Below, piece after piece: positions 3,704-37,986 of a DNA stretch of 42,764 nt (within the stretch, counting starts at the first letter, position 1; every line of letters begins with the position of its first letter). The position numbers were made by a program, and so were the translations under genes. Below the pieces are notes generated by a model, which searched no databases, had not been told where the DNA came from, and worked only from the letters and a program-made list of their open reading frames with translations. This DNA comes from Cytophagales bacterium (GTDB lineage Bacteria; Bacteroidota; Bacteroidia; Cytophagales; Microscillaceae), in NCBI GenBank assembly GCA_038248005.1, contig JBBRUH010000001.1:1-42764 (forward strand). The letters are read 5' to 3'.

Positions 3704-3706
3704 ACG

Positions 3707-3829
3707 ATGATACAACTCCAACGTCTCAATATGGACTCTGCTTGGTATCTAAAGTGGGATGAAACAAGCTTGCTGATAGATTCATGGCTTATAGGCTCTG
3801 AGGTGGATAGATTCAAATACCCACGATGA
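3707..3829 (+). pseudogene. 40-codon remnant resembling the N-terminus of an MBL-fold metallo-hydrolase
   Basis: It translates to MIQLQRLNMDSAWYLKWDETSLLIDSWLIGSEVDRFKYPR then stop. The pattern (L..DS.W.L......LLID.WL.GS) matches N-termini of MBL-fold hydrolases, but the metal-binding HxHxDH region is missing. Confidence 0.35.
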
Positions 3830-4121
3830 AGATGAAAATGAAAGGAATCGTTTCAAAGTTAACTAAAGTAAAACTTCCCCATTTTGATACAATCATTTCT
3901 CACGAAGATTTTAATTTTATAAAGTCTGAAAACTATGAGCTTTTTTCTATTGAAGATTAGTTGTTTAAGATTTATTTTTGGGTTTTTTCAAGAGTTTTTA
4001 TTACATCTAGGCTTAAAATTTGTCATTTGGTATGAGCTTGGATATTTTTTTGCTAATTAAGTTTAAGATTTTAAATCTTAAAGATACACAATAGCCAAGA
4101 ATGAACAAATAAAATACATTC

Positions 4122-6380: not shown

Positions 6381-6387
6381 ATATTCT

Positions 6388-20755: not shown

Positions 20756-21621
20756 AACAATCTACCTGGATACATTTAAGGTTTCCATTCTCTTTTTTTT
20801 TGATGCCTGTATTTTTATTTGCACTAGGCGTAGTACCTGAGCCTGTTGGGTGGCAAGTAGCTTTGGTGTTTTTTATACTTCATTTTTTGGTTTACCCTGC
20901 CAGCAACGGCTACAACTCCTACTATGATAAGGATGAAGAAAGTATAGGAGGAGTAGAGAATCCCCCTCCTGTAAGCCCAGAACTGTGGAGAGTTTCTATT
21001 TTGATGGATGTGGTTGCAGTAGGGCTGAGCTTATTTATTGATTTATATTTTGCTTTGGCAGTGCTAGTATATGGTTTGATATCTAAGGCATATAGTTATG
21101 ATAAGATTAGACTTAAAAAGTACCCTTTCATTAGCTGGATTACGATAGGTGTTTTTCAAGGAGCATTTACATTTTGGATGATTTATTGGGGTGTTGGTGC
21201 TGAGCCTACTTGGGCAAGTTTATCAGAGGGAAAAGTAGCTATGGCGGCTTTGTTAAGTACGGTGATGCTTTTGGGTTCTTACCCTATGACCCAAGTTTAT
21301 CAGCATTCTGAAGATTCTAAACGTGGTGATAAAACGCTCAGTCTAATCTTAGGCATTCGGGGAACATTTCTGTTTACTAATTTAGTATTTGGGGGTGTAG
21401 CAGCGGCTTATTTCTTTTATTTTTGGCATTATCAGAGTTTGTATTGGGCTGTGGGTTTTGAGTTGGCTTTACTTCCAGTATTGATTTATTTTTTTAGCTG
21501 GTTTTATAAAGTATGGTTTGATGAAAGAGCTGCTAATTTTAAATCTACGATGATGCTTAATCTAATCTCGGCTATATGCCTGAATCTTTATTTTTTGAGT
21601 TATTATTTACTGAAGGTTTGA
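20752..21621 (+). CDS. UbiA-family prenyltransferase
   Basis: About 8 TM segments, Asp-rich NGYNSYYDKDED motif, 289 aa. ATGA overlap with the upstream ORF. Confidence 0.75.
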   Translation: MKQSTWIHLRFPFSFFLMPVFLFALGVVPEPVGWQVALVFFILHFLVYPASNGYNSYYDKDEESIGGVENPPPVSPELWRVSILMDVVAVGLSLFIDLYFALAVLVYGLISKAYSYDKIRLKKYPFISWITIGVFQGAFTFWMIYWGVGAEPTWASLSEGKVAMAALLSTVMLLGSYPMTQVYQHSEDSKRGDKTLSLILGIRGTFLFTNLVFGGVAAAYFFYFWHYQSLYWAVGFELALLPVLIYFFSWFYKVWFDERAANFKSTMMLNLISAICLNLYFLSYYLLKV

Positions 21622-24163
21622 GAGGAATATGAAAAGAAAAAGTACTGCCTTTGTCCACTTCGCTTTTAAACCAGATTTTCCCACCTAATTTTTTGATAAA
21701 ATCTTGGCTCAAAGAAAGCCCCCATCCATTACCCTCTTTACCCTCGGTATCAGGGAGAGAGACTTTTTGTTCAGGGTTAAAAATATGACTTTGGTGTTCA
21801 TCAGAAATGCCTATCCCTGAATCTTGCACATGCACCACACAATGCTCAGGAGTATGCTCAGAATAGACACGAATTTTACCCTTTTTGGGAGTAAAACGAA
21901 TGGCATTAGAAATCAGATTTTGAAGTACATTCCCTAATGCAGAGCGGTCTGTATCCATACATAAATAAGAAACTTCTACTAATAAATCGATTTCCTTTTC
22001 TCTGATTTGTACTTCTAAGTTACTCACAACACTATTTACCATCTCTTGAATATCCAACCTTTCTAATGAAATTTGCCAATTATCCAATTGTAGGATAGTC
22101 ATTAAGAAAAGATTATCTACCATCTTATTAAACTCTTTGGTAGCATGCTCTAATTCTGAACCTAGTGCTTTAATTTCTTCTGAGGAGAGGGTATCATATT
22201 GTGTGCTAATCTGGTTTGCAAACTGAAATAAAGATTTAAGAGGACGTTTGAAGTCTTGAGATAAAATCTTCAAAAACTGGTCTTTGGTATTGTTGAGAGA
22301 TTGCAGGATTTTTTTCTCAGACTCTAATGCTTCTACTTGCATCTGTAATTTGGCTTTTTCTACACTATTATTTTCAGAGGGCAGTGTAGTACCTTTGGTA
22401 TCAAGCATAGCCGATACAGGACTAATTTCAGGAATATTCTTAAAGGGTGGTAAGATGATATGAAATCGAGAGAACTCATCCTCTTTACTAGAAAGTGAAA
22501 TCTGACCACCAAGTGCGTTTAGTGCTTTTTTGACTACATAGAGTCCTAGTCCATTGCCTTGTGAAGAGTGATTTGCTCTCATGTACATTTTAAATACCTT
22601 GGAGTGATACTCAGAGGCTATGCCTTGCCCATTGTCATTGATAGTAATGTTCAAGACATCTTCTTTCTGGAATACACTAATCTTTAAAAAAGATTCTTCT
22701 TCTAAATTAGCACTAGAAAAATTAATGGCATTTTCTATAAGATTTTGGAGTATGATTTCTATAAGTTTAGGTAAACTCTTAAATTCAATATCTTGCTTAA
22801 TCTCTTGTTCCCAACGGATAGATTTACTCTCTAACTGTGGCAAATACTGCTTATGAATAGAATCTAAAATACTCTCGAAATCAACCAATTTTACTTTAGA
22901 ATCTGTTGCTTCATGGATTTCATTAATCATTAAGAGTTTCATAAGCATCTTATCCATAAAATGAGCAGTAGTATTGACCTTCTCAAATAATTTGATAGCA
23001 TCTGGGCTATCAAGAGAAAGAATGGCTACTTGGGTAAGACCCATCAGCGTAGTGAGTGGACGGCGTAAATCATGGGATGCACGATAAAGAAAAAGATCTA
23101 ACTCTTCTTTGGTTTGGCGTATTTCTAGAGTCCGTCTCTGAATTTCAGTCTCAAGACGAGCATTGATAATTTGAATATCAGCTTGTTTTTTTTCTAACTC
23201 ACGGTTGATTTTAGTAAGTTCTCTAGCCTGTTTTCTAATTTCTACTTTTTGAAGGCGAAGTTGATCTTGGTTTTTTTGCTTTTCGGTAATATCCCAGAAA
23301 GTAGTCTGAATCCCAATCACACGGTTTTCCATATCAAAGATAGGAGATTTAATCATCTGCACTACAGTAGCCTCTATTAAAGGGGAGGATTTAAGTACTC
23401 TGATGGCTTCTAAATCACTCTCAGTTTCAATAACCAAAGCGTCATCGCCACGAAGAATATCAGTTACTTCTTTGACATAAAATTCATAAGTCTTGCGACC
23501 TATTAGATTTTCGAGCTTAATTCCTAACTGTCTTAAGAAAGCTTGGTTAGCAAAAGTAATATTTCCTTCTATGTCTGTACGAAAGAGACTTTGTGGCATA
23601 GCTTTAATGAGAGATTGATACTCTCGAGATTGCCTCATAATCTCCTCATTCTGGTTTTTCATTTTTTTATAAACCTGTGCATTTTCAATAGCAATACCAA
23701 CAAAAACCGCAAAGTTTTGAAGCACGTACATATCTGTAAGTTCATAAGCATCTGAGTCTATGCTTTGTACTGTGACTACACCTAGTTTTTTATTGGATTG
23801 ATTAATAGGCACATAAATAACTGATTTACAGTCCTTTTTGTTACCAAGAGAGGCTTTCAGAGAATAATCAGAAACGTCAGATTCTAATAATGATGATTGA
23901 TTCTCGAGGCAGACTCTTGAAAGATGAGTATTATTTTTGGGAGTAATAGTGTCTGTGTCAATGCCGTCTCTATCAGTATTTTTGATTAGAAAACTTAAGC
24001 TTTGCTTGGAACTCTCATAAGTGCCAATAGCTAATACACTAATAGGCATGAAGTCTTGTAATAACTGGAAAGAAATATTGAGAAGACGCTTAAGGTTAGG
24101 TTGCGAAGTAATTACCAAGCCTATTTGGCTAAGTTGCGAAAGTTGGTTTTGTACTTTTTCCAA
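21572..24163 (-). CDS. GAF-PAS sensor histidine kinase with two tandem DHp/HATPase_c cores
   Basis: GAF is about aa 20-160 and PAS about aa 180-295, followed by a coiled coil. Core 1 has H-box LYRASHDLRRPL (His364, nt 23072-23074), N-box LQNLIENAINF, G1 DNGQGI and G2 GNGLGLYVV. Core 2 has pseudo-H-box ILSQDFKRPL (Gln636, nt 22256-22258), N-box LQNLISNAIRF, G1 DSGIGI and G2 GNGWGLSLS. Confidence 0.85.
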   Translation of the reverse strand: MEKVQNQLSQLSQIGLVITSQPNLKRLLNISFQLLQDFMPISVLAIGTYESSKQSLSFLIKNTDRDGIDTDTITPKNNTHLSRVCLENQSSLLESDVSDYSLKASLGNKKDCKSVIYVPINQSNKKLGVVTVQSIDSDAYELTDMYVLQNFAVFVGIAIENAQVYKKMKNQNEEIMRQSREYQSLIKAMPQSLFRTDIEGNITFANQAFLRQLGIKLENLIGRKTYEFYVKEVTDILRGDDALVIETESDLEAIRVLKSSPLIEATVVQMIKSPIFDMENRVIGIQTTFWDITEKQKNQDQLRLQKVEIRKQARELTKINRELEKKQADIQIINARLETEIQRRTLEIRQTKEELDLFLYRASHDLRRPLTTLMGLTQVAILSLDSPDAIKLFEKVNTTAHFMDKMLMKLLMINEIHEATDSKVKLVDFESILDSIHKQYLPQLESKSIRWEQEIKQDIEFKSLPKLIEIILQNLIENAINFSSANLEEESFLKISVFQKEDVLNITINDNGQGIASEYHSKVFKMYMRANHSSQGNGLGLYVVKKALNALGGQISLSSKEDEFSRFHIILPPFKNIPEISPVSAMLDTKGTTLPSENNSVEKAKLQMQVEALESEKKILQSLNNTKDQFLKILSQDFKRPLKSLFQFANQISTQYDTLSSEEIKALGSELEHATKEFNKMVDNLFLMTILQLDNWQISLERLDIQEMVNSVVSNLEVQIREKEIDLLVEVSYLCMDTDRSALGNVLQNLISNAIRFTPKKGKIRVYSEHTPEHCVVHVQDSGIGISDEHQSHIFNPEQKVSLPDTEGKEGNGWGLSLSQDFIKKLGGKIWFKSEVDKGSTFSFHIPLKPSVNNNSKNKDSGI

Positions 24164-24530
24164 GGCAATTACCTAGTTTTGTTTATTGAGTGTGTAAATG
24201 GCAAATATCATTTTACTAAACAAAGAATGCAAATATTATTAATCAAAATCTAAAAACCTATTTGGATATTTGTTTACCAATGTAATAAAGTTATTTATAA
24301 TATAGTTGTTTTTAACAAATAAATCTTAAAATATATAACATCATCTGAATAAAAATAGTTTGAAAAATAAATTGTAATAAGTTTGTTTTTTCAAGAAAAA
24401 ACTAAGTAGGGTTTCGCATAAAAATCATTTTTTTGACTTGTTTTTTTTAAAAAGGTACGCTTCTTAAAATAAATAAAAATACTATCTTAATTTATGTACT
24501 TTTTTGTTTTTTAAATTTTACAATTCCTTT

Positions 24531-24923
24531 TCAGTATGCATCCAAAAACGTACTTTCAAACTCTTGATAATTAGAAAATATCTTATATTCAAGTTCTTTA
24601 TCTGTTAAGCTGTTTTTATATTGCATGGTTTCTTTAAAGTTACTAGAAATATGTTCTTTGATGAAGTAATTTTTCACCATTGATATTTTAGGCACAAAAT
24701 AGCTTGAAAACCAATGTTCAATCTCTTCTGAGTTTTGAAATCTTAGTTTAGTCCGATCCTCAGCTATCATACCTATATCATATTTACAGGCTTGCTCTGC
24801 CACTAAATCTAATACAATCTTGTATTGAAGAGTAGTTAAGAAACTCTTCCAAACTATTTTAATTTTTTTCTCTTCCTTGTTAATAAATACAGCAGCATAA
24901 TTTGCTCCAAATATCTTGTTCAT
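24531..24923 (-). CDS. Hypothetical 130-aa cytoplasmic protein (possibly SpoIIAA-like/STAS-fold)
   Basis: The pattern ..VFINKEEKKIKIVWKSFLTTLQYKIVLDLV......IGMIAEDRTKL......EIEHWFSSYFVPKI resembles small SpoIIAA-like (DUF3478-type) proteins. This is a weak, eye-only call. Confidence 0.4.
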   Translation of the reverse strand: MNKIFGANYAAVFINKEEKKIKIVWKSFLTTLQYKIVLDLVAEQACKYDIGMIAEDRTKLRFQNSEEIEHWFSSYFVPKISMVKNYFIKEHISSNFKETMQYKNSLTDKELEYKIFSNYQEFESTFLDAY

Positions 24924-25139
24924 AAAGACCCTTAATAAGTGTGAATAAATTTAAAATAACAGTTTTTCTGTTATTGTAAGATGGAATTAATACTATGAAG
25001 AAGAATATGATTTATACTCCTAATACCTTAATTTATTCACAAGGTTTTCTATCATCAAAATTTCAACCAAAAAAGCTGTAAGGAAAACAAGAAAAAGTCT
25101 TAAAACAACTCATAAAACTAATTCTTGTTTCTTATTCTG

Positions 25140-25619
25140 TTACCAATTATCTGTACTAAAAAGTAATTGCTCCATCGCATCCGAAGAAGTAGCTACTATA
25201 TCTATGGTAGAGCGAAAATCTTTTTCACTTTGATTTGCAGGTATTTTAGCAGTAAATACTAAAAATACTTGACTGTTTTCTACAATCATTTCCCAAGCTC
25301 CTAGCTTTTTTTGGCTATTATCTGTCAGTAGTTTGGCAAGTTGTGTCTCTGTCGGTCTTTGGTTAGATTGATAAATCACCGAAAAAACTTCTCTAATTTC
25401 CATTTGGTCATATTGGCTAGTAGCAGAATGAACAAAGACCATCTGAGTACGAGATCCTACTGGTACTGTAAATAAAAATGTGCCATCATCTTTGACATCA
25501 TATTTAAAATTTAGTTTGGTAAGGTTTTCAATGACTCTTGTGTCATTTGGTGTTTGAGCCATCAAGGCACAGCTTGAAGAGATAAAAACAAGTAATAATA
25601 GATAAATTTTATTTTGCAT
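25140..25619 (-). CDS. Secreted YbjN-like (putative sensory-transduction-regulator fold) protein
   Basis: Signal peptide MQNKIYLLLLVFISSSCALMAQ. The body (NFKYDVKDDGTFLF..GSRTQMVFVHS...LLTDNS...VFLVFTAKIP...DAMEQLL) follows the YbjN-family pattern. Confidence 0.5.
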   Translation of the reverse strand: MQNKIYLLLLVFISSSCALMAQTPNDTRVIENLTKLNFKYDVKDDGTFLFTVPVGSRTQMVFVHSATSQYDQMEIREVFSVIYQSNQRPTETQLAKLLTDNSQKKLGAWEMIVENSQVFLVFTAKIPANQSEKDFRSTIDIVATSSDAMEQLLFSTDNW

Positions 25620-25702: not shown

Positions 25703-28309
25703 TTAAAATCTCTTGCCAACTACTACTTTTTCTTTGTAAACTTGTGTCTTTCCATTTAAGTCTAATGCTTTAACCAAGACCATATAATAACCCATTCGTG
25801 CGATTACTCCCGAATTATCAGTGCCATCCCAAGTAAAAAACCCTGCTTCTGTGCCAAGTAAGTTCCTTTCAGCGATTCTTTTTATTTCTCGTCCATTGCG
25901 GTCATAGATAAAAATATCTACTACATAACTTCCTCTGTCAAAAAGGTATTGAATCTGAGTAAAATCACTTTGTCCATCACCATCAGGCGTAAATACAGTA
26001 GGGTTAATTGTAATCTTAGCCGAAGGCTGATTAGCATTGGCTTGCTGTGAGTTTAGATAGCCAGGGGTAGCAAAACCCACATTGGCAGAAGCTGATTTCC
26101 AACTATCTCTCTGGTTAGTAGGCACTTCAAAAGAAATTCTTTCCAAAGACACTCCTTCTTTATCATCTAACAATGGAAAATGAAAATCCTCATTATAATC
26201 AAAACGCTCTATAAGTAGGTCTTGATTATTGATAAGAAATACAGTGCCATCATCATCATTAAAACTAGGCAAACTACTCATCTGTAAAAAAGTACGGGTT
26301 ACGGCAAGAGGGTAGTTATCTTGGATATTATCCGTATTAGCACTTAGCAAAAGATAGCTTTTGGGAGCTAATATGTAATCTTCTGTCGTAATCATTCGTT
26401 GATTGGCGATGATTTCATTGCTTAGATTGGCAAGCTTCCAGTCTTTTAGATTGATAAATTTAGAAGAATGGTTATAAATTTCTATAAAATCATTCCCTGC
26501 TGTTCGGGGGTTAAATAAAATTTCATTTAAGATTACATCCATAAAATCACTCTCAATTGCAAGCCCAAAAACCCCTTGATTAGCATTTCTAATCAAATTA
26601 CCATTGCAATCGGTAAGACCTTCTACACTTACTTGATAGCTTTGATTAGGACTTATTTCAGGGCTAACTTGTAATAAGACTTGTCTAAAAAATGGAGCTA
26701 CGGGAACGACACTCACTACATTTAATCCATTGCTAAGAGAATATGTGCCATTTTGTAAGCTAGTTTGATTCATAGACTCATTAAAGGTAAGTCGTAATGT
26801 TTGTGTATTTAAAGCCTCACTACGCCAAAGTTCAGGAGCAGTCAAATCTGGGCGAGTATCAGCTACAGAGTTTACTCGGCTCGGTGTGCCGCCATTGTTA
26901 GATTCGGAAGCAATCCAGTTTTTGCGGGCTACACAAGGATTTTCTGTATCAATCATCTCAAGAGTCCATCCTCCCTCAGCTTTGCTTGAGTTTTGATACC
27001 AGCTATCAGAATATTCTACTGCAAAGATGAGATTTCCAGTAGCACTTTCTAGCTTGAGCAGTTCACCACTATTGGTAAGTGAAGGAAAGGTTGGAATAGC
27101 AATGGCACTCCCATATAGCTGAAAACCACTTAGACTTGATTGCCCACAAAGCACCACATAAGCACCCGAAGCAAGCACATAATCAGGCAATGTAAAACTC
27201 CCCCCATTGTCTTTTAATACTACATCTTTGAGATTAAGACTTCGGTTAGAACGGTTATAAATCTCGATAAATTCTGCCTCAGGCAAGCCATTGAGAGGTG
27301 CAGCATCTCCTGTAGGGTCTGCCATGATTTCGGTAATGATAAACTCATGGTATTGAGGAGGGGCGTTATAGACAAATGTCGCTTGAGTGGGATTAGGGCT
27401 TAGAGGATTTCCAGATAAATCTTGTAATCCACTGATAGTCAACGTATTGCTAATTCCGCTTATAAAGGAATTAGTAAACTCTAAAAAAACTTGACTAGGA
27501 TTTGAAGTATTTATTTGTGCAGTGAGAGGTATTCCTAAGCCATTATTGACAGTATAATTTGCTACGCTTTGGGCTGAAAGGTTGGTCATCGCCTCACTAA
27601 ATTGAAGGGTAAGTCTTTGGGTGGACTCTACTAAAATATTAAGAAGGGTAGGAGACTCATTGTCTATAATCTCATCACCAATATAAAAATCATCTAAGAA
27701 AAAATTATTTCTGTTGGAAGATGTATGATTACAAACTATCCCAAAGAACTGAGTAGAGTTATATGTATTGTCTAAAAAAGGATTCCCCTCTGAATTAAAT
27801 AACTCTCCTCCAGTAGGGTCAGCAAATATTTCCCAATTTCCCAAAGCATCTCTTACTATTTTGATACGTACTTTTACGGTACTGGAGAAGGCTGTACTAC
27901 CTGTAAAAAGCAAGGTAGAGTTAGCTCCATTCTGGCGAAAAATTCTAATAAAATCATTGCCTGTTTGCCCTATCTCGAGGTAATACCCGTTGAGATTGCC
28001 TTTGAGATTACTTTGATTAGAAACCAAATAGACTCTAAGCTGATTACTGCCAGAAGGAGCAAAACGCAAGTCTATCAGAAATCGCCATTCTTTATCATTT
28101 ATCTGAGCATTAGGAGTACTCAGTGAAAGTATAGCTGTAGCACTAGGCCCTGCACTTCTAAGCTGGGCATTGTCTATTATGAATTCACTCGCATCACCAC
28201 TCCAAGTTGGATTTTGAGTGAAATTTCCATCCAAAAAATTATCTTGGAGTTGGGCAAAAGCACTTAAGGAAATACTCCAAATAATGAGAAGACTAATAAA
28301 ATATTTCAT
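25703..28309 (-). CDS. Large surface protein: N-terminal jelly-roll-like domain, 2 x (Ig-like + lamin-tail domain), T9SS/FlgD-Ig-like C-terminal tail
   Basis: Signal peptide ..SLSAFAQ. LTD motifs are ITEIMADPTG...AEFIEIYNRSNRSLNLKDVVL and LNEILFNPRTAGNDFIEIYNHSSKFINLKDWKL. The tail is VFTPDGDGQSDF...IFIYDRNGREIK...FTWDGTDNSG...GYYMVLV. Confidence 0.8.
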   Translation of the reverse strand: MKYFISLLIIWSISLSAFAQLQDNFLDGNFTQNPTWSGDASEFIIDNAQLRSAGPSATAILSLSTPNAQINDKEWRFLIDLRFAPSGSNQLRVYLVSNQSNLKGNLNGYYLEIGQTGNDFIRIFRQNGANSTLLFTGSTAFSSTVKVRIKIVRDALGNWEIFADPTGGELFNSEGNPFLDNTYNSTQFFGIVCNHTSSNRNNFFLDDFYIGDEIIDNESPTLLNILVESTQRLTLQFSEAMTNLSAQSVANYTVNNGLGIPLTAQINTSNPSQVFLEFTNSFISGISNTLTISGLQDLSGNPLSPNPTQATFVYNAPPQYHEFIITEIMADPTGDAAPLNGLPEAEFIEIYNRSNRSLNLKDVVLKDNGGSFTLPDYVLASGAYVVLCGQSSLSGFQLYGSAIAIPTFPSLTNSGELLKLESATGNLIFAVEYSDSWYQNSSKAEGGWTLEMIDTENPCVARKNWIASESNNGGTPSRVNSVADTRPDLTAPELWRSEALNTQTLRLTFNESMNQTSLQNGTYSLSNGLNVVSVVPVAPFFRQVLLQVSPEISPNQSYQVSVEGLTDCNGNLIRNANQGVFGLAIESDFMDVILNEILFNPRTAGNDFIEIYNHSSKFINLKDWKLANLSNEIIANQRMITTEDYILAPKSYLLLSANTDNIQDNYPLAVTRTFLQMSSLPSFNDDDGTVFLINNQDLLIERFDYNEDFHFPLLDDKEGVSLERISFEVPTNQRDSWKSASANVGFATPGYLNSQQANANQPSAKITINPTVFTPDGDGQSDFTQIQYLFDRGSYVVDIFIYDRNGREIKRIAERNLLGTEAGFFTWDGTDNSGVIARMGYYMVLVKALDLNGKTQVYKEKVVVGKRF

Positions 28310-28403
28310 TCCCTTAAATTAATACTTTTACTTAAAAATGCGAAATTGAGGAGTATAAACTTAGGTTAAATAATTATTAAGTTTTTGGAGAGTATCAGAA
28401 AAT

Positions 28404-29261
28404 TTATCGAATACGAAGCATCTGCCCCGAGTTGAGTGTTGCTTGTCTTAACCCATTGAGACGGATGATTTCTTCGGGTTTGACTTCATATTTACTAGCA
28501 ATGACTACGAGCGTTTCGTTTTGGCCTACTTCATGAAAAAGGTATCCTTGCTTGGGAGTAGCATTGCCATAATGCCTAAAATGGTGAGGTTTGATGAAGA
28601 ATATATCTGAGCGGATTTGATCTTTTTGTTTGAAATCATAGACAAGTTGTGGGTTGATAGTATATCCTTGGTATCTCACCTCAAAATGTAGGTGAGGTCC
28701 AGTGCTATACCCTGTACTTCCTCCTAGACCTAATAATTGCCCTGCTTTTACTTGTTGTCCTACATTTACTTTTCGCTTTGATAAATGAGCGTAAAGTGTT
28801 TCTAAGCCATTGTCATGCTTGATAATGACATAGTTACCATACCCGCCACCATACGTAGAAAGCTTTACATAACCATCAAAAACCACAAAAACAGGCTCTC
28901 CCATTCTTAGTGCTAAATCAATTCCGTGATGAAAATGCCCTTGTCTAGGCCCAAAACCAGAGGTCTTTAGTTGGGTATCTCTTAATGGAGGAGCCCACAG
29001 TTTTTTTGTTTTGACCTCATAGAGTTGAATAAAAATAGGGTCTTTAAGGCTGACAGGGTGGAAACTTCCTTTTTCTTGAAATACATACGTAAAGCCAAGA
29101 CTGGCACAATTTTCTTCGAGAGAGTCTATTTGAGGGTTGGCTTCGTGGGCTTCCTGTGCTACACTTCTATTTAAAAAACTTAGCACTAGAATCCATAAAA
29201 AGAATGCAATCTTTAAATATAAACCTTTGATGATAAATGATAAATGCTTGAATATACGCAT
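28404..29261 (-). CDS. M23-family peptidoglycan metalloendopeptidase with C-terminal LysM domain
   Basis: HHGIDLA and GSTGYSTGPHLHFEVR zinc motifs. LysM: HEVGQNETLVVIASKYEVKPEEIIRLNGL..ATLNSGQMLRI. Met at 29261 (MRIFKHLSF..) gives a signal-anchor N-terminus; the ORF opens at 29351. Confidence 0.85.
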   Translation of the reverse strand: MRIFKHLSFIIKGLYLKIAFFLWILVLSFLNRSVAQEAHEANPQIDSLEENCASLGFTYVFQEKGSFHPVSLKDPIFIQLYEVKTKKLWAPPLRDTQLKTSGFGPRQGHFHHGIDLALRMGEPVFVVFDGYVKLSTYGGGYGNYVIIKHDNGLETLYAHLSKRKVNVGQQVKAGQLLGLGGSTGYSTGPHLHFEVRYQGYTINPQLVYDFKQKDQIRSDIFFIKPHHFRHYGNATPKQGYLFHEVGQNETLVVIASKYEVKPEEIIRLNGLRQATLNSGQMLRIR

Positions 29262-29496
29262 AAAGAATACTTGATTAGAATTACCTGTTTCTTTAATCGA
29301 ATTATAGCTGAGAAGGTTTCCCATAATTACTTCTTTTTTGGAATATAACAAACACGAAAGTGTTTGCGATGAATTAAGATTTTATTTTTTGAGAATAAAT
29401 TATTGAAAGATAAAATCTCTATTTTAATCTGTAAATTTTGCGACATAGGAATAGAAAATCCATACTAAGTTCATACTGCATATCTAACTAATTAAT

Positions 29497-30726
29497 TTAA
29501 TCAAATTGGAACTGGTAAGGTTGATTAGATTTTTTTCCTTTTTTGGCTTTGGGGTTATATTTAGGAATCATATAACTAATATTGAGAGAGAAATTATGAA
29601 GTTTAAAATCGCTATCTATGTATCCAAATTTATAAATTAAATCATCATTTACACCTCTATTTTCTCCAATAACTTGTTGGGTAAGCCCCCAGTTAAATCT
29701 CCCTTCAAGAATAACATCACTGCCTGATTTCAGAAAATTACGAAATCTAAATCCTCCTCCTGCTACAAGGCTGTATTGTAGTTTTTCTCTTTGCTCAAAA
29801 GCAAGTAAATCATACGTGCCAGTGATGGGGTCTCTGCTACCTCCACCAGCAATATCTCCTAAGACATCTATCCTGCTTAAGTCAGTTTGTGCTGACATTA
29901 CATAGTTTACAGCACCTCCTAAGACGAGAAAAGGTTGGATTTTATTTTTGATAAGTTCTTTGTTTACTTTTGATTCAGCGGGATTTTCAGGGCTTTCTTT
30001 ATCTACTTTATATCCTTTTCTTTTGAAATGATATTTAAGTAGGATAGGCAACGAAAGTTGATTTTGAGTTTCGGTAAAAGTAATATTAGCGAAATCTAAT
30101 ACCTGATCACTAAACTGATACCCTTGTTGCCTATATACTAGCTCGGGAACAAGCGAAAACGAACGCTTTTGTCCTCCAAAAGGAAACTCTAAGGCGAGAG
30201 CTACTTCATAACCTAGTTGTGATTGATAGCTACCTCTTGCGATATTAGATTGGTCTATGCTAAAGTTGGTAGTGGTTTCTACTTGGGCAAAATTAGCACC
30301 TACCCTTAATCCTAAATAATAAATTGGTAGTGCCTGTAACTCATAATACAGTTCAAGAAACTCTGGCACTTTAGATTCAGGTATAGAACGTGAATTACGT
30401 GGGTCATACTCAGGGTTATTTTTCAGCTGAGATTTCATGAACTTGACCATGCTTTCCCTTGCTTTTTCATTATCATTTACATAGATATAGATAAGGGTCA
30501 TGTATTTGTAAGCTTCTATCTTTTCCTCTTTTTTGAGTGATTTACCTTCTAGGCATCCTAATAAGATATTCTCACTTACTACTTTATCAATGGTACCTTG
30601 ATTATAGGCATCTTTGACTTGAGCTAGTTTTTGGGAGCACTCTTGGTCTTGTGCTACCATGATTTGAAAAGGAATCATTAAGGAAAGTAGAAGAATACCC
30701 CATTTTTCAAAGAATAATTGTATCAT
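29497..30726 (-). CDS. Outer-membrane beta-barrel protein (PorT/OMP_b-brl_2-like) with ~110-aa helical (TPR-like) N-domain
   Basis: Signal peptide MIQLFFEKWGILLLSLMIPFQIMVAQ from Met 30726. A helical segment is followed by alternating-hydrophobic beta strands (YYLGLRVGANFA, YEVALALEFPF, LVLGGAVNYV, YSLVAGGGFRF). Confidence 0.65.
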   Translation of the reverse strand: MIQLFFEKWGILLLSLMIPFQIMVAQDQECSQKLAQVKDAYNQGTIDKVVSENILLGCLEGKSLKKEEKIEAYKYMTLIYIYVNDNEKARESMVKFMKSQLKNNPEYDPRNSRSIPESKVPEFLELYYELQALPIYYLGLRVGANFAQVETTTNFSIDQSNIARGSYQSQLGYEVALALEFPFGGQKRSFSLVPELVYRQQGYQFSDQVLDFANITFTETQNQLSLPILLKYHFKRKGYKVDKESPENPAESKVNKELIKNKIQPFLVLGGAVNYVMSAQTDLSRIDVLGDIAGGGSRDPITGTYDLLAFEQREKLQYSLVAGGGFRFRNFLKSGSDVILEGRFNWGLTQQVIGENRGVNDDLIYKFGYIDSDFKLHNFSLNISYMIPKYNPKAKKGKKSNQPYQFQFD

Positions 30727-30779
30727 GTTGTGTTGTGTATAATTCAATGTGAGATTTTATTTTCCAAGAAATTGCTTGT

Positions 30780-33700
30780 TTATTTTTTTATAGGTTCTAA
30801 ATCATCTTTAGTAATCTCCTCACCAAGACCATATTGATTACAAGTTTTTTCATAATAAATAGTGCTACCTGTCTTTCCCTGATTTTTTGTGTTAGATTTA
30901 TCATCTTCTTTATTTTGAAGAGTTGCTACAAAACGTTCCCATTCTTTTTTACTCATATTTCGGGTAAGTTCAGGACATATCTGCGAAGACATTGTCTCTA
31001 AATCAGTAGGCCAAGCCCTCACTAAATTATCTCTACAGCCTGCTAATAATTGACTTCCATCTGCATTAAAAGTAATAGACCAAACCCAGTCTTTGTGGTC
31101 TTTGAGGATAATAGGTGGTCGGTCAAAATCCTTCTTTTCTCTGATATTCCAAATGCGTACAGTCTGGTCAAAACTTCCTGTGGCAAGTTTAGAACCATCT
31201 TTGCTAAAGGCCATTTGATTTACACGGGCAAAATGACCCTTCAGGATACCTTTTTGTGATTTTCTTTGTACATCATAAACCTGCACCATACCATTGGCAT
31301 CACCTACTGCTAAGAATCGTGCATCATCACTCAGAGCCAATGAAATAATAGTACTTAGCCCTGAAATAGGAAAAGCTTGTTTTTGGGTATAATCACCAGT
31401 CAGAAGCACTACTTGATTTCCGAGAGCATACACCACGATGCCTTCAGAAGAAGCAATGGCATTAATCTGTCCTTGTTGTGGTTGTATCACACGGCTAGTA
31501 CCAATTTGGACATCGGCTAGATTAATATTTCCACCTTCATCAGCGAAGATAAGTCGTTGATTATCTATAAAAGTAACATACCAAACCTGCCCTATTGCGG
31601 CTTGCTCGAGTTTAATTTTCTTAGGTGCAACTTGTAGATTGCCATTGGCAAAGAGTTGTACACCTGAATAATTACCTACACAAGCCAACCAATTTTGGCT
31701 AGGACTCATCGCCAATGCTCTATGAATAGAATCTTGTTTTATACTTTGAATGATTTGATGGCTTTGGCTGTCCCAAAGAATGATTTTACCATCACTACCA
31801 GCCGAATAAATCTGATTTCCTTGTTTACTGACCAAACCTCTTACATTGGCACCATGCGCTATGAGTTGATTATATTGGTCTCCTTTGAGTGCTTTGAGAG
31901 CATAATATAAGCCATTATAAATTTCAGGATTGCTAGGGTCACCACCACTTCGCTTATGAAAGCGGTAGGCTTGCTCTGCTATGAGTGCTTTTCGTTCTTT
32001 TTCGTCTTGGTCAGATTGAGGGAGTTCTAGAGATTTAATAGCCATTGTGCTGGCTATAGAGAGCAAGCGTAGTTTGTCAGCCTCTTCTCGTGCGAGTTGT
32101 GCGAGTTGCTTTTCTATTTCAGCAAGTTCTTTGTTCATTTCTGCGATTTTCGCTTCTTTTTTCGCTTTTTCCTCAGCAGTACGAGCCTCCTCAGCTTTTG
32201 CTCTGGCGATTCCTTCTGAGATAACGGCCGCCTCAGCAGAAAGCCTAGCTTTTTCTTTTTGAATCTCAGCAATGCCTCTTTGAAGTATTGCTTCTTTTGT
32301 TTTTACTTTTGCATCATCTTCAGCTGCTTTTGCTTTTTTGGCTTCTCGTTTGGCATCTTCGGCTGCTTTCTTAGCTTCAATGGCAGATTTCCTAGCAATT
32401 TCCCCTTTTTCTAATGCTAATTTCCCCTGCCTAGTAGCCTCCTGACTTTGTTGCCAAGCGAAGCCCGCCAAGATAATCGCAAAAATAAGGGCTGCTATGA
32501 TAAATCTAAAGATAAAATTATCTCTTCGGCGATCTCTGAGTCGCTTCTGTTCTTTATTGACAAGAAGTTGCTCGTGTGCTTCTTTGCTAGACTCTAAGAA
32601 CCACATAGTGCGGTCATAAGTAGGGTGATAGCGAGTTCCCCAAGCTTTGGTGGGTTTTTGTTTGTTTCGCCAGTCTAGGGCTATTTCTAAATCAGGATTT
32701 GTCCAGAGTCCTGCTTGTCCTTTTTGGTGTTTTTCGGCATCTTCAGCAAGACGCAGATAAAGCTTTACGGATTCTGCTTCTTCTTCCACCCAAGTTTGTA
32801 AGGTAGTCCAGACACGGATAAGGCTTTCATGAGAAATATCTACAATGCTATCACCATTGAGAGGTTCTTCTTCGGGAGGCATTAAAAGCCCTCTATCTTT
32901 ACGGCGAAAAGGTTCTACTATAGCCATTACTTCGGCTTCTGAGGTATCTACCTCATGAGCGATTTCTTTGACTTGTGCTGGTCTTCTGACACGTCTGCCA
33001 TCATTGGTGATTTCTGTAATTGTCCTGAATATCTTAGCACAGATATTTCTTTGCTCTGGTGGAAGTTCATTATAAGCCTCATTGGCATGTACTGAGAGTG
33101 CTTGAGCGATTCCTCCTATGCTTTCATAGTGATAGACTTTGATAGTAGAATCTCTGTTACGGTGCTGTTGCCACTCATTCCAAGTTCGCATCAAGGCATG
33201 TTGCATCAGAGGGAGTTGATCAGGAATTTCTTCTACATCATCTAGCACTTTTTTTACTAACTCATCTTCTATCTCAGCATTCATATACTCAATAGGTCCT
33301 TTGATGGCGGCTCGTTTTTCTTCACGAGTCATAAAGGGAATCAGGAACTGACTGTCATTGATTTTCTTGGTAAAATTAGGATACCTTGAGCAGTTGCCGA
33401 TAAAATCAGAACGCATCGTGATGACCACATAGATAGGCACTTCTGCCTGTGCAGTGAGGTCTAATAATAACTGTACAAACTGTTCAGAAGAAGTATGATT
33501 TGATTTATTGATGTTTTCGAAGCGAAATAACTCTTCAAACTGATCTACAAAGATGAGTCTATTATGAGGGTTTTCTTCAAATTCTTGGCGTAGCTGTGTG
33601 GAAATTTGTGAATACTCAGTAGTGTCTTCGGGAACGCCAAGAGCATCGAGGAGATTTTGAAGGGGTGCTTCCCCAGGCTGCATATTACTTATTTTCCATT

Positions 33701-33947
33701 CAAGTTCATTATCAGCAGGGTTTTTATCATGTAGGGTAGGGAATAAGCCACAATAAATAAAGGAAGATTTACCAATACCTGAAGGCCCTATGACAGATAC
33801 AAAACGGTTTTTAATTAGTTTTTGGGTAACCTCTTGCACTTGTACTTCTCTCCCAAAAAACAGATAAGACTCGTCTGGACGAAAGGCACGTAACCCAGGG
33901 AACGGGTTTTGGAGTTTTTTTGTGGAAGTAAGTGTATCAGTTTCCAT
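30780..33947 (-). CDS. nSTAND-type P-loop NTPase - TM helix - K/A/E coiled coil - WD40 beta-propeller protein
   Basis: N-terminus NPFPGLRAFRPDESYLFFGRE is typical of the nSTAND1 class. Walker A GPSGIGKSS (nt 33762-33788) and Walker B LIFVDQFEE (33531-33557). A TM helix NFIFRFIIAALIFAIILAGFAW (32454-32519) is preceded by RLRDRRRD. Coiled coil is about 32064-32435. WD40 repeats (SDGKIILWD, GMVQVYD, DQTVRIWN, DNLVRAWP) span about 31008-31865. C-terminal CPELTRNMSKKEWERF motif. Confidence 0.85.
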   Translation of the reverse strand: METDTLTSTKKLQNPFPGLRAFRPDESYLFFGREVQVQEVTQKLIKNRFVSVIGPSGIGKSSFIYCGLFPTLHDKNPADNELEWKISNMQPGEAPLQNLLDALGVPEDTTEYSQISTQLRQEFEENPHNRLIFVDQFEELFRFENINKSNHTSSEQFVQLLLDLTAQAEVPIYVVITMRSDFIGNCSRYPNFTKKINDSQFLIPFMTREEKRAAIKGPIEYMNAEIEDELVKKVLDDVEEIPDQLPLMQHALMRTWNEWQQHRNRDSTIKVYHYESIGGIAQALSVHANEAYNELPPEQRNICAKIFRTITEITNDGRRVRRPAQVKEIAHEVDTSEAEVMAIVEPFRRKDRGLLMPPEEEPLNGDSIVDISHESLIRVWTTLQTWVEEEAESVKLYLRLAEDAEKHQKGQAGLWTNPDLEIALDWRNKQKPTKAWGTRYHPTYDRTMWFLESSKEAHEQLLVNKEQKRLRDRRRDNFIFRFIIAALIFAIILAGFAWQQSQEATRQGKLALEKGEIARKSAIEAKKAAEDAKREAKKAKAAEDDAKVKTKEAILQRGIAEIQKEKARLSAEAAVISEGIARAKAEEARTAEEKAKKEAKIAEMNKELAEIEKQLAQLAREEADKLRLLSIASTMAIKSLELPQSDQDEKERKALIAEQAYRFHKRSGGDPSNPEIYNGLYYALKALKGDQYNQLIAHGANVRGLVSKQGNQIYSAGSDGKIILWDSQSHQIIQSIKQDSIHRALAMSPSQNWLACVGNYSGVQLFANGNLQVAPKKIKLEQAAIGQVWYVTFIDNQRLIFADEGGNINLADVQIGTSRVIQPQQGQINAIASSEGIVVYALGNQVVLLTGDYTQKQAFPISGLSTIISLALSDDARFLAVGDANGMVQVYDVQRKSQKGILKGHFARVNQMAFSKDGSKLATGSFDQTVRIWNIREKKDFDRPPIILKDHKDWVWSITFNADGSQLLAGCRDNLVRAWPTDLETMSSQICPELTRNMSKKEWERFVATLQNKEDDKSNTKNQGKTGSTIYYEKTCNQYGLGEEITKDDLEPIKK

Positions 33948-36030: not shown

Positions 36031-36915
36031 CTAATTATTCGCATCTGTAAATGCTATTAAGTCTTCTATTTTGTTGATAATCATTCCATTAGTAGGCACT
36101 TTGAGGTCTTGCCCTACTACTTGGTATCCACTCAAAAGTACTTTAGAATCAGGAAATTTATTACAAACTTTGCCAACATATTCTTGAATCGCATCTTGCC
36201 CAGGAGTAGAAGTAATGATACTTAATACATATTCTGGTTTGTGTATTTTGTGAGCCTCTACCAAATCTTGGAAAGGCAAACTTTGCCCTAAATAGATTAC
36301 TTTATTGTTGCGAGATTTGATGATAAAGCAAGCAAATAACAGAGCAAGCTCGTGAGTCTCACCCTCAGGAAGATAGAGTAAATATTTGTGAGAGTCTGGG
36401 TTTTGGCTATAGACTTGTCCATCAATCGCTACAATGATTTTTTGTCTGATAAGATGACTTATAAAATGCTCTTGTGCGGGATTGATAGCTCCTGTCTGCC
36501 ACAGAAAGCCTATTCTTACCAAAAATGGATAGATAATCTGTGTCATGGTGCGTTCAAACCCGATTTGGAGGGCATTGGTAGAGATGATTTTCTCGAAGCG
36601 GTCTTCGTCTAAATCTATCATTGCAAGGGTCAAAGCTTGAATCTGTTCTGGTGATTTGGAGCTTTGTTCGGTAATCTCTATAACTCTTTGTCGTAGGTCT
36701 GCTTCAGTCATCTCAGCTATTTTAGAGATTTTAAAACCATTTTCTTTTAAAAGAGATACATTAAGGATTAATTTTAAATCTACATCATCATAATACCTGA
36801 TGTTAGTATCAGTTCGTTTGGGTTGCACTAAATTATATCTTTGCTCCCAAACTCTTAAAGTATGGGCTTTGATGCCAGATAAATGCTCTAAATCACGAAT
36901 AGAATATACACTCAT
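36031..36915 (-). CDS. MerR-family regulator with B12-binding photoreceptor module (CarH/LitR-like)
   Basis: MerR HTH: YSIRDLEHLSGIKAHTLRVWEQRY. Exact Wx9EH motif (W139..E149-H150: FLWQTGAINPAQEH). Candidate lower-axial His188 in EGETHELALL (nt 36352-36354), followed by a Rossmann-like KVIYLGQSLP. Confidence 0.8.
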   Translation of the reverse strand: MSVYSIRDLEHLSGIKAHTLRVWEQRYNLVQPKRTDTNIRYYDDVDLKLILNVSLLKENGFKISKIAEMTEADLRQRVIEITEQSSKSPEQIQALTLAMIDLDEDRFEKIISTNALQIGFERTMTQIIYPFLVRIGFLWQTGAINPAQEHFISHLIRQKIIVAIDGQVYSQNPDSHKYLLYLPEGETHELALLFACFIIKSRNNKVIYLGQSLPFQDLVEAHKIHKPEYVLSIITSTPGQDAIQEYVGKVCNKFPDSKVLLSGYQVVGQDLKVPTNGMIINKIEDLIAFTDANN

Positions 36916-37129: not shown

Positions 37130-37810
37130 TTAAAAAAAGTTGATGAAATAGGTTAAATTGTGAAACAAAAAGAAAAAAAATTGTGCTGAATAAATCCAAA
37201 TTGCTATGTAATTGTCTTTTTTAAAGTTTAAATTAAAGAAAACAAAGAGAAGCAAACCAGACACACTAAACCAAGCCAAATAATTACGGATAGGTACAGT
37301 TTCGTGGTTCCAACTCCACATTTGATGCTTTATAGCTACAGGCTCAATCAAAATATCAATCAAGACCATCAGACTTGCTCCTATCAATACTCTCATCCAG
37401 ATAGAAGAGTGAAACCGCATAGCGATATTGCCAGTAGCATAAATTAGTACTAGCCAGTTAAGCCCGATAATCAGAGGAATCTCATCTAACTTAAAGCCAA
37501 GCGTAGAACCATATTGGTAACTGCCAAAAATAACTCCCGTATGTACACCAAGCCACTCTATCCCAAAGCCAACACAGAAGCTAATAGCTATAAAGGCAAT
37601 GAAAGAACTTCGCCAGTCTTGATGAAAATAAAGTAAAATCACTGTGCTACTCACCAGATTAAAGGGGATAAGCATCTCAAAAAAAGCCCTAGAGGGTTGC
37701 CATTGCAAGCCAATAAAACCAGCAATGTGCATAGAGACAACCAAGGCGACTGCCCAAGTATAGTCTGTAACCTGTATCAAATTAATTTCTTGATTTCTTT
37801 TCGTCTGCAT
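37130..37810 (-). CDS. Carotenoid-biosynthesis membrane protein (DUF422 / CruF-like)
   Basis: About 7 TM segments. GVHTGVIFGSYQYGSTLGFKLDEIPLIIGLNW matches the family core pattern (G.PFG.Y.Y...LG.....VPL.I.L.W). Start taken at Met 37810; the ORF opens at 37828. Confidence 0.6.
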   Translation of the reverse strand: MQTKRNQEINLIQVTDYTWAVALVVSMHIAGFIGLQWQPSRAFFEMLIPFNLVSSTVILLYFHQDWRSSFIAFIAISFCVGFGIEWLGVHTGVIFGSYQYGSTLGFKLDEIPLIIGLNWLVLIYATGNIAMRFHSSIWMRVLIGASLMVLIDILIEPVAIKHQMWSWNHETVPIRNYLAWFSVSGLLLFVFFNLNFKKDNYIAIWIYSAQFFFFLFHNLTYFINFF

Positions 37811-37986
37811 AAAAAATGTTAAAAACAAGCCTTTATTAAACTATAAAAAGACCTAATGTTTTGTATATTTGATAATAGATAAATGTTTTGAAGTATAATT
37901 TTAAGTAAGAAATAAAAAATAGAGAAAACTCTTAACCAAAATCACTCATAAATTTTATATCCACAACCTATAACTACATAAACTCC

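Follow-up and report, generated by a model that had tools for sequence, protein, structure and literature searches.

The window analysed in this work, by which we mean the whole stretch of DNA under consideration, is a sequence of 42,764 nt from a Cytophagales bacterium (Microscillaceae; assembly GCA_038248005.1, contig JBBRUH010000001.1, positions 1-42,764 of the forward strand). Our subject is a string of four consecutive minus-strand open reading frames (ORFs) at 25703-33947, encoding in gene order a STAND NTPase, an outer-membrane beta-barrel protein, an M23/LysM peptidase and a surface protein with lamin-tail domains (LTD). ORF analysis and Pfam profile searches returned the four genes with the coordinates and domains described in an initial annotation made from the sequence alone, and the lengths it had given for the three junctions (53 or 32 nt depending on the start codon, 235 nt and 94 nt) were also correct. 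As detailed below, the four genes differ in how firmly they are tied together, with the NTPase and the barrel forming the core.

Three samples of homologues were used. The search for NTPase homologues returned more than 7800 matches, and domain content and lengths were read from the 120 matches listed. The scan with one genome per species gave at least 585 NTPase relatives, of which the best 80 loci (34-43% NTPase identity) were taken and searched with hidden Markov models (HMMs) made from the window-clade proteins. These 80 species loci belong to Cytophagales and some Bacteroidales and all lie outside the superclade of the window. The loci of the closest homologues (L001, L002, L003, L088, L089, L091 and L092) were looked up individually, apart from the 80 species loci.

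Results

The STAND NTPase and its predicted topology

The first gene (30780-33947, minus strand) encodes a protein of 1055 residues in which an nSTAND1 module, one transmembrane (TM) helix, an alanine-heptad helix, a helical cap, a seven-blade WD40 propeller and a C-terminal tail follow each other. The nSTAND1 module (residues 14-410, 32718-33908, minus strand) matches Pfam PF20703 with E=2.3e-100 and 337 bits against a cut-off of 27.1, residues 15-410 covering positions 1-374 of the 379 in the profile, and many WD40 families of Pfam match at about residues 690-990. The Walker A motif (GPSGIGKSS, G54-S62) and the Walker B motif (D135-E139, with D135, E138 and E139) are invariant or nearly so in 54 homologues. 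Conservation within the protein is highest in the NTPase module, and the mean column identity in the NTPase alignment is 46-50%.

The initial annotation had described this NTPase as effector-less and had considered the layout unusual. The first part stands, in that no N-terminal effector was found: 13 residues only lie ahead of the NTPase domain, and the homologues are alike in this respect. The second part does not, since all of the 120 homologues listed carry nSTAND1 together with WD40-type Pfam families and 119 of them are 990-1090 residues long. These homologues span Cytophagales, including Cytophaga hutchinsonii, Rhodocytophaga, Fulvivirga and Roseivirga, and the absence of an N-terminal effector is the norm for a large NTPase family and not an oddity. 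Homologues are labelled in databases as 'WD40 repeat protein', 'nSTAND1 domain-containing NTPase', 'High-affinity carbon uptake protein Hat/HatR' and also 'EcfA2'; nothing in domain content or gene context backs the Hat/HatR and EcfA2 labels.

In 79 of 83 NTPase orthologues we found one strongly hydrophobic segment, which in the window protein corresponds to residues 478-500 (32448-32516, minus strand; mean Kyte-Doolittle value 2.7) and is preceded by the sequence KRLRDRRRD. Over 15 residues on each side of the segment, the orthologues have 6.1 Lys and Arg residues before it versus 2.5 after it, and a net charge of +4.8 versus about zero. This asymmetry argues for an N-in/C-out orientation and, since the ATPase must be cytoplasmic, the C-terminal 550 residues are predicted to be periplasmic. 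The predicted layout is that of a bitopic protein with the NTPase module in the cytoplasm and a periplasmic head that consists of the helical cap (residues 631-690) and the seven-blade WD40 propeller (residues 691-982; the head as a whole at 31002-32057, minus strand). The periplasmic location predicted for this WD40 'sensor' would alter the mechanistic picture drawn in the initial annotation.

The AlphaFold2 (AF2) model of the NTPase, a monomer computed from 54 sequences, has a mean predicted local distance difference test value (pLDDT) of 85.6. It consists, after the NTPase module, of a helix at residues 444-498 that enters the membrane, an uninterrupted helix at residues 510-641 (132 residues, about 20 nm if straight), the cap at residues 647-688, the seven-blade propeller at residues 694-980 with a pLDDT of about 95, and a short helical tail. 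Among known structures Apaf-1 matches the full-length model best; for the propeller, the match is to a G-beta-like fold with a TM-score of 0.75-0.8 normalized to the target.

A regular helix as presumed connector between membrane and head

The segment between the membrane and the head is a run of 21 unbroken Ala/Ser heptads (residues 490-630, 32058-32480, minus strand), whose register starts inside the TM helix and stops at the cap. Counting period-7 Ala/Ser without any alignment, we obtained 21 consecutive heptads in the window protein, whereas the longest run in 2000 shuffles was 8; among the orthologues a run of 19 heptads is the most frequent. In 87 orthologues one position of the register is Ala in 93% of cells and the remaining positions are mostly polar. 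Spacer lengths of 92, 99, 113, 120 and 127 residues occur, and the differences are whole heptads in 86 of the 87 orthologues. Such an unbroken heptad helix, which overlaps the long AF2 helix, suggests a rigid connector. The idea that the helix acts as a ruler of fixed length was ruled out, as spacers range from 92 to 133 residues.

The outer-membrane barrel and its pairing with the NTPase

The second gene (29497-30726 from an ATG, or to 30747 from a TTG; minus strand) encodes an outer-membrane protein of 409 residues with a signal peptide (residues 1-25), a helical N-domain (residues 26-132, 30331-30651) that contains Cys30 and Cys58, and a beta-barrel (residues 133-392, 29551-30330). It matches Pfam OMP_b-brl_2 with E=8.3e-15. 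This family is generic; among NCBIfam models no PorT- or PorP-specific match was found and TDE1717 matched below threshold only. One homologue is labelled 'PorT family protein', which is likewise a generic label. Searching folds with the AF2 model of the barrel gave as best matches the 8-stranded OmpA transmembrane domain, NspA, Ail, OmpX and OmpW (TM-score to target 0.5-0.6), and a small 8-stranded fold of this type would make the protein an anchor and not a channel. The N-domain, which carries a conserved motif C30..Q..L..A..Y..G, is the better conserved part in 82 orthologues (0.47 vs 0.33 for the barrel), and the Cys30/Cys58 pair is kept in 75 of them. Both features fit an oxidising periplasm and a conserved binding role.

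The initial annotation had proposed the barrel as a candidate partner of the NTPase and had chosen gene-neighbourhood linkage beforehand as the observation that could overturn the proposal. The linkage was found: a barrel homologue lies immediately 3' of the NTPase gene, in the same orientation, in 76 of the 80 species loci, or in 76 of 78 once the two loci cut off by a contig end are set aside. The remaining two, L015 and L033, are true exceptions. From the NTPase stop to the barrel ATG the median gap is 6 nt, with 62 of 79 loci at 30 nt or less and an overlap in 15. In the window the junction at 30727-30779 is 53 nt from the ATG and 32 nt from the TTG start, and our scan showed no terminator-like hairpin in it. 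The pair is present in every variant of the cassette described below, including loci that have these two genes only. The adjacency of NTPase and barrel is far beyond chance, and the two genes are a deeply conserved pair.

For the barrel family, an exhaustive HMMER profile search gave about 657 clusters at 50% identity, a number comparable in magnitude to that of the NTPase loci; most of the members listed are 340-400 residues long, and the matches include the N-domain. A word-index search had returned 6 close relatives only, and its profile rerun the same 6, so that the distant barrels come from the locus HMMs and from HMMER. Neither the scan of the window for sigma-70 promoters and terminators nor that for the Bacteroidota -7 motif TAnnTTTG placed anything in the junctions; the counts were those expected by chance, and both scans are uninformative on co-transcription.

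The canonical cassette in relatives

Clustering the flanks of the 80 species loci gave three further conserved families, which we call genes A, B and C. Gene A (about 1060 residues) has a multi-TM region, HEAT repeats and a domain that binds cyclic nucleotides (cNMP); in some loci a HAMP and PP2C (SpoIIE) protein, gene A2, stands beside gene A or in its place. Gene B (about 480 residues) abuts the NTPase gene upstream and has DUF4062 and TIR_2 matches, and gene C (about 410 residues), directly after the barrel, encodes a lipoprotein with propeller-like repeats. The order A(/A2)-B-NTPase-barrel-C is found in about 60 of the 80 species loci. The canonical form is also present in C. hutchinsonii ATCC 33406 (L087, CP000383.1 1170055-1189189), where the NTPase is ABG58301.1, a 'possible membrane protein', and both Rhodocytophaga paralogues have it. 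A candidate effector acting in trans, namely the DUF4062 TIR-like protein with the cNMP-binding membrane protein, lies directly upstream of the NTPase in most relatives. Neither the NTPase nor the barrel, nor any of genes A, B and C, has a specific model in NCBIfam or PADLOC.

DUF4062 has been described as a TIR-like NADase in phage defence, and human NWD1 and TEP1 are DUF4062-NACHT-WD40 fusions (bioRxiv 10.64898/2026.05.01.722283, 10.64898/2026.06.25.731849). Seen against these fusions, the canonical cassette would be a split, membrane-spanning analogue, of which the DUF4062 part has been lost in the window lineage. Searching the whole window with tblastn gave no significant homologue of gene A, B or C, and the larger cassette is for this reason invisible from the window alone.

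Elsewhere in the window there are two paralogous TPR and SpoIIE/PP2C phosphatases, at 6370-9198 and 10694-12760 on the plus strand, whose output domain is the same as that of the HAMP-PP2C gene found in some canonical cassettes of other genomes.

The M23/LysM endopeptidase

The third gene (28404-29261, minus strand; the ORF extends to 29351 and 29261 is the likeliest start) encodes a secreted M23 metalloendopeptidase with a C-terminal LysM. Pfam places Peptidase_M23 at residues 110-204 (28650-28934) with E=4e-33 and LysM at residues 243-284 (28410-28535) with E=4e-8. The protein has both an export signal, which ends in VA/Q (the slash marks the end of the signal peptide), and a wall-binding module. 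Its catalytic and zinc-binding motifs HxxxD (HHGID) and HxH (HLH) are intact and are kept in all 7 orthologues, and judging from these motifs we predict an active-type peptidoglycan endopeptidase. The nearest NCBIfam models are of the MepM/ShyA type, below their cut-offs, and the PDB relatives of the domain are M23 peptidases, ShyA, lysostaphin and EnvC.

Orthologues with 44-70% full-length identity and the same architecture were found in all seven of the individually examined loci. The gene order is NTPase-barrel-M23-LTD in L001 (NTPase identity to the window 67%), NTPase-barrel-M23 in L088 (66%), L002 (63%) and L003 (48%, with wholly different flanks), A-NTPase-barrel-M23 in L089 (Microscillaceae, 56%, with 4-nt overlaps at both junctions) and A-B-NTPase-barrel-C-M23 in L091 (Raineya, 42%, with 7 nt before M23). 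The contig of L092 (Microscillaceae) begins inside the NTPase gene and continues with barrel and M23, again with 4-nt overlaps. The M23 gene thus adjoins the barrel gene in the relatives except Raineya, where gene C adjoins, and it occurs in three cassette contexts and about 7-8 genomes. In a neighbour-joining tree the window clade is monophyletic and Raineya is in its sister group, with the M23-bearing loci all falling within a single superclade. Tree and gene orders taken together are consistent with a reductive series from A-B-NTPase-barrel-C-M23 through A-NTPase-barrel-M23 to NTPase-barrel-M23. An M23 gene was not found after the barrel in any of the 80 species loci outside the superclade. 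The earlier proposal of the peptidase as a partner is accordingly retained for the window lineage and Raineya and does not extend to the family at large: M23 is a real but lineage-restricted third member, and its adjacency is beyond chance only within one lineage.

Some candidate interpretations of these loci were given up. That M23 occurs only in relatives with at least 48% identity was overturned by Raineya. The 1564-residue protein encoded upstream in L089 is not a fusion of A and B; it corresponds to gene A enlarged by two further cNMP-binding modules, and the locus has no gene B. The 947-residue protein that follows M23 in Raineya was considered as a cargo of the type IX secretion system (T9SS) and rejected, having no signal peptide and no Pfam match and abutting sheath and tube genes. 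As an observation in its own right, L091 15213-21072 (Raineya sp., GCA_025454915.1) holds the cassette with M23, then this 947-residue protein, then phage-sheath and gp19 tube genes, and the downstream genes look like a contractile injection system locus. In L002, at 2974-6279, defence-like genes with GmrSD_N and AAA_15/AAA_21 (DUF3696) domains lie 4-7 kb upstream of the NTPase; they are absent from the other relatives.

The LTD surface protein

The fourth gene (25703-28309, minus strand) encodes a surface protein of 868 residues, in which Pfam finds LTD in two stretches (E=1.9e-28) and Big_5. Its C-terminal domain resembles that of T9SS type-B cargo, with 27.4 bits for CHU_C against a cut-off of 27 and 26.2 bits for TIGR04131 against a cut-off of 35. 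An orthologue follows M23 only in L001, the nearest relative, and other genes follow in L002, L003, L088, L089 and L092. We have therefore rejected the LTD gene as a conserved member at the level of orthology, and the view that the four genes form one unit had to be abandoned with it.

The distances within the window raise the question of whether the last two genes belong to the module at all. It could be supposed that an ordinary wall hydrolase and an ordinary surface protein merely sit, through inherited synteny, beside a two-gene module. The gaps in the window, 235 nt between barrel and M23 (29262-29496) and 94 nt between M23 and LTD (28310-28403), are compatible with this, as are the missing M23 in the 80 species loci and the restriction of the LTD orthologue to the nearest relative. 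Yet M23 stays in place while the flanks and genes A, B and C vary, over NTPase identities of 42-100%, and in L089 and L092 the stop and start codons overlap. As an account of both genes we find this explanation improbable. Taken gene by gene, the adjacency of LTD at the level of orthology is probably inherited synteny or coincidence, and pure coincidence is unlikely for that of M23.

Surface proteins of the canonical cassette

The LTD gene has a counterpart by position. In 47 of the 48 canonical loci with room, the gene after C is a very long ORF in the same orientation, and 41 of these ORFs exceed the 8-kb flank. The giant ORFs have signal peptides, unrelated N-termini and Ig, PKD and SprB repeats, and every one with a visible end closes in a Por_Secre_tail (L021, L048 and L087 by Pfam, L086 by precomputed Pfam, L025 by C-terminal similarity). 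In C. hutchinsonii the T9SS protein encoded downstream has 1525 residues. The LTD protein is a positional analogue of this giant T9SS cargo, loosely attached.

These observations bring in a different purpose for the same architecture, and the resulting explanation overlaps with the one that we prefer. The cassette might be an accessory of T9SS cargo that anchors, regulates or senses the giant adhesin, with the WD40 head and the barrel relaying a signal from outside to the STAND module and on to DUF4062 and the cNMP or PP2C proteins; the LTD/CHU_C protein would be the client in the window. The regularity of the giant ORFs and of their C-termini speaks for it, the window and L001 carry a T9SS-type surface protein in the equivalent slot, and PorE offers a precedent for periplasmic TPR and WD40 elements in the T9SS (PMC5053529, PMC12773672). 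However, the window clade keeps a surface-protein gene in the window and L001 only, that is in 2 of about 7 loci and not in L002, L003, L088, L089 and L092, and the cytoplasmic partners that would receive an outside-in signal are missing from the window. In addition, T9SS cargo genes abound in these genomes, CHU_C passes by a narrow margin and TIGR04131 stays under its cut-off. The role in relation to T9SS surface proteins is well supported for the canonical cassette and weak for the window clade, and as the explanation of the window we regard it as unlikely.

A role in defence

STAND proteins also suggest conflict with phages. The NTPase could sense an invader at the envelope and trigger abortive infection, through NAD+ depletion by DUF4062 and a membrane effector in the canonical form and through wall damage by M23 in the window clade. 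Membrane proteins that bind cNMP, as gene A does by its domain, resemble the defence effectors of Pycsar and CBASS. The downstream surface protein is hypervariable and the WD40 part evolves faster than the NTPase. Moreover, the nSTAND1 clade was defined within conflict systems (Pfam; PMC10907252), and the NADase role of DUF4062 proteins in phage defence (see the two preprints cited above) adds to this. Other observations speak against it. In PADLOC the barrel, M23, LTD and the products of genes A to C had no match, and the NTPase had only a marginal one, to mad3 with E=1.1e-5 over the P-loop residues 46-82. Unlike patchy, mobile defence genes, the family is found in at least 585 species genomes with a stable cassette order and the column identity of 46-50% reported above; the neighbours in the window are housekeeping genes, and the window variant is without any known defence-type effector. 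Of 589 STAND clades, only 198 are defence-associated (PMC13581612). We consider a defence function quite unlikely.

Other features of the window

The other genes of the window have ordinary chromosomal functions, such as Lgt, TrkH, aminotransferases, a TonB-dependent receptor and carotenoid genes, and no tRNA, Rfam match or mobile-element signature was found within the window. Downstream of the string, two small ORFs of 159 residues (with a lipoprotein-like signal peptide) and 130 residues lie at 24531-25619 on the minus strand. Neither has a Pfam or NCBIfam match, both follow the LTD gene in L001, and they overlap the GC-poorest kilobase of the window (24001-25000, GC 0.26). At 21572-24163, also on the minus strand, is a GAF-PAS-HisKA sensor kinase with two HATPase_c stretches (at about residues 469-565 and 739-849), which is kept downstream of the string in L001. 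On the far side, a MerR-HTH and B12-binding regulator (CarH-like) adjoins a carotenoid biosynthesis gene (36031-36915 and 37130-37828, minus strand), and the two are probably a light- or B12-controlled carotenoid module.

The signal peptides of the barrel, M23, LTD and 159-residue proteins all end with Ala followed by Gln (VA/QDQ, VA/QEA, FA/QLQ and MA/QTP). In Bacteroidota, substrates of signal peptidase I follow a 'Q-rule', and these four exported proteins fit it.

Discussion

The explanation that we prefer, and to which we give about even chances of being right, is that the window contains, in reduced form and with M23 added, a widespread and apparently undescribed trans-envelope STAND module of Bacteroidota, here with a periplasmic output. 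The invariant core would be a bitopic STAND NTPase and a small outer-membrane barrel that shows a disulfide-bearing helical domain to the periplasm. In this core the WD40/cap head may dock on the N-domain of the barrel, giving a bridge between inner and outer membrane, and nucleotide-dependent switching or oligomerisation of the cytoplasmic STAND module may be coupled to the periplasmic head through the helix of unbroken register. The canonical cassette would add cytoplasmic partners: the DUF4062 TIR-like protein and, with it, either the cNMP-binding membrane protein or a PP2C phosphatase. These partners appear to have been lost in the window lineage, together with the propeller lipoprotein of the outer membrane; the NTPase-barrel pair and the secreted, catalytically intact M23/LysM protein have been kept, so that the remaining output is most likely periplasmic. 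Signal peptides are present on the barrel, M23 and LTD proteins, and NTPase, barrel and M23 are all predicted to meet in the periplasm. There the bridge might recruit the peptidase or gate local cleavage of peptidoglycan by it, following a logic like that of FtsEX-EnvC. Alternatively, cleavage by M23 may serve to let the propeller, of about 4-5 nm, and the helix pass through the sacculus.

Domains, gene linkage with its phylogenetic depth, heptad regularity and intact catalytic motifs are observations; the topology is a prediction, and docking, coupling and control of M23 are inferred from them. Several points weigh against the trans-envelope module as we have drawn it. The topology is derived from hydropathy and charge bias. 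The heptads form a single Ala stripe with polar residues elsewhere and have no classical hydrophobic core at positions a and d, which makes the oligomeric state and the rigidity of the helix uncertain. The AF2 model of the barrel is moderate, with a mean pLDDT of 65 from 6 sequences, and both AF2 models are monomers. In comparison with orthologues from outside the clade, the identity is 0.45 for the cap, 0.29 for WD40 and 0.47 for the NTPase; WD40 is less conserved than the NTPase, as a diversifying sensor would also show. The gap of 235 nt before M23 means that the peptidase gene may have its own promoter, and its absence from the 80 species loci means that the core module needs no dedicated hydrolase.

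We put forward a more far-reaching version tentatively, since we think it doubtful. The module may be an NLR-like switch across the envelope with its periplasmic propeller on the barrel. The canonical form would link a T9SS adhesin to the TIR-like NADase and the cNMP protein, for instance in sensing surface contact or the state of the envelope, and the window lineage would have been rewired to an ATP-gated M23 peptidase.

No account of the NTPase-barrel pair, of the cassette or of any STAND protein with a periplasmic sensor came up in the library of papers searched; the part of this search that used C. hutchinsonii locus tags is weak, the numbers CHU_1029-1034 having been estimated. In the current understanding STAND and NLR ATPases are receptors of the cytosol with a sensor that folds back on the ATPase, and a family with its sensor across the membrane, if true, would be a different use of the switch. 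It would also be a new connector of inner and outer membrane beside Tol-Pal, TonB, Lpt and FtsEX-EnvC. The tie to giant T9SS surface proteins bears on how adhesins are controlled or sensed in gliding Bacteroidota. Because the cassette is present in the genetically tractable C. hutchinsonii ATCC 33406, these ideas are directly testable, and the window variant, as a minimal set of ATPase, barrel and M23, would allow the periplasmic output to be studied without the cytoplasmic partners.

Comparison with known systems

The NTPase has the order of Apaf-1, NWD1 and TEP1, that is, a P-loop STAND NTPase, then a helical domain, then a seven-blade WD40 propeller. With NWD1 and TEP1 the likeness goes further, as in the canonical cassette a DUF4062 protein, encoded separately, accompanies the NTPase, an arrangement that mirrors their fused DUF4062-NACHT-WD40. 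It differs from this group in that the window family has no fused effector and has an obligate outer-membrane barrel, and the window variant has no DUF4062 gene. Furthermore, NTPase and propeller are separated by the TM segment and about 20 nm of helix; the propeller, predicted to lie in the periplasm, cannot then fold back onto the NTPase in the manner of Apaf-1.

With FtsEX-EnvC (and FtsEX-PcsB/RipC) the window system would share a cytoplasmic ATPase coupled across the inner membrane, by way of a long periplasmic helical element, to an M23/LytM protein. However, the ATPase is of the STAND type and not the ABC type of FtsE, and the helix is in the ATPase polypeptide and not in the LytM protein. 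Searches with Pfam and NCBIfam found no FtsE ABC ATPase or FtsX permease domain among the proteins of the string. EnvC is catalytically degenerate, whereas the M23 protein of the window keeps its catalytic residues. By analogy, the resemblance is one of logic only, and the window system is not a member of the family.

Within Tol-Pal, TolB is a periplasmic beta-propeller. Tol-Pal/TolA and Lpp also resemble the window system in having a long, Ala-rich helix anchored in the inner membrane and directed towards an outer-membrane partner (for TolA/TonB see PMC12204202). There is no sequence homology with them, the predicted energy source is NTP as opposed to the proton-motive force, the propeller is fused to the connector, and the place of Pal is taken by a small barrel that has a helical N-domain. 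Among the envelope proteins of Bacteroidota, PorE (PG1058) and PorT-type components of the T9SS also have TPR-like and WD40 elements in the periplasm, and T9SS cargo genes adjoin the cassette, but PorE is a lipoprotein with an OmpA_C domain and has no ATPase.

The layout of the NTPase is the same as that of PknB-type receptors, which are N-in/C-out with a cytoplasmic catalytic domain, one TM helix and an exported sensor. These differ in being kinases rather than STAND NTPases, in having a PASTA sensor and in having no outer-membrane partner. The families of the components are thus known, and it is their arrangement, a membrane-spanning STAND ATPase with an obligate barrel partner and an Ala-heptad connector, that appears to be new.

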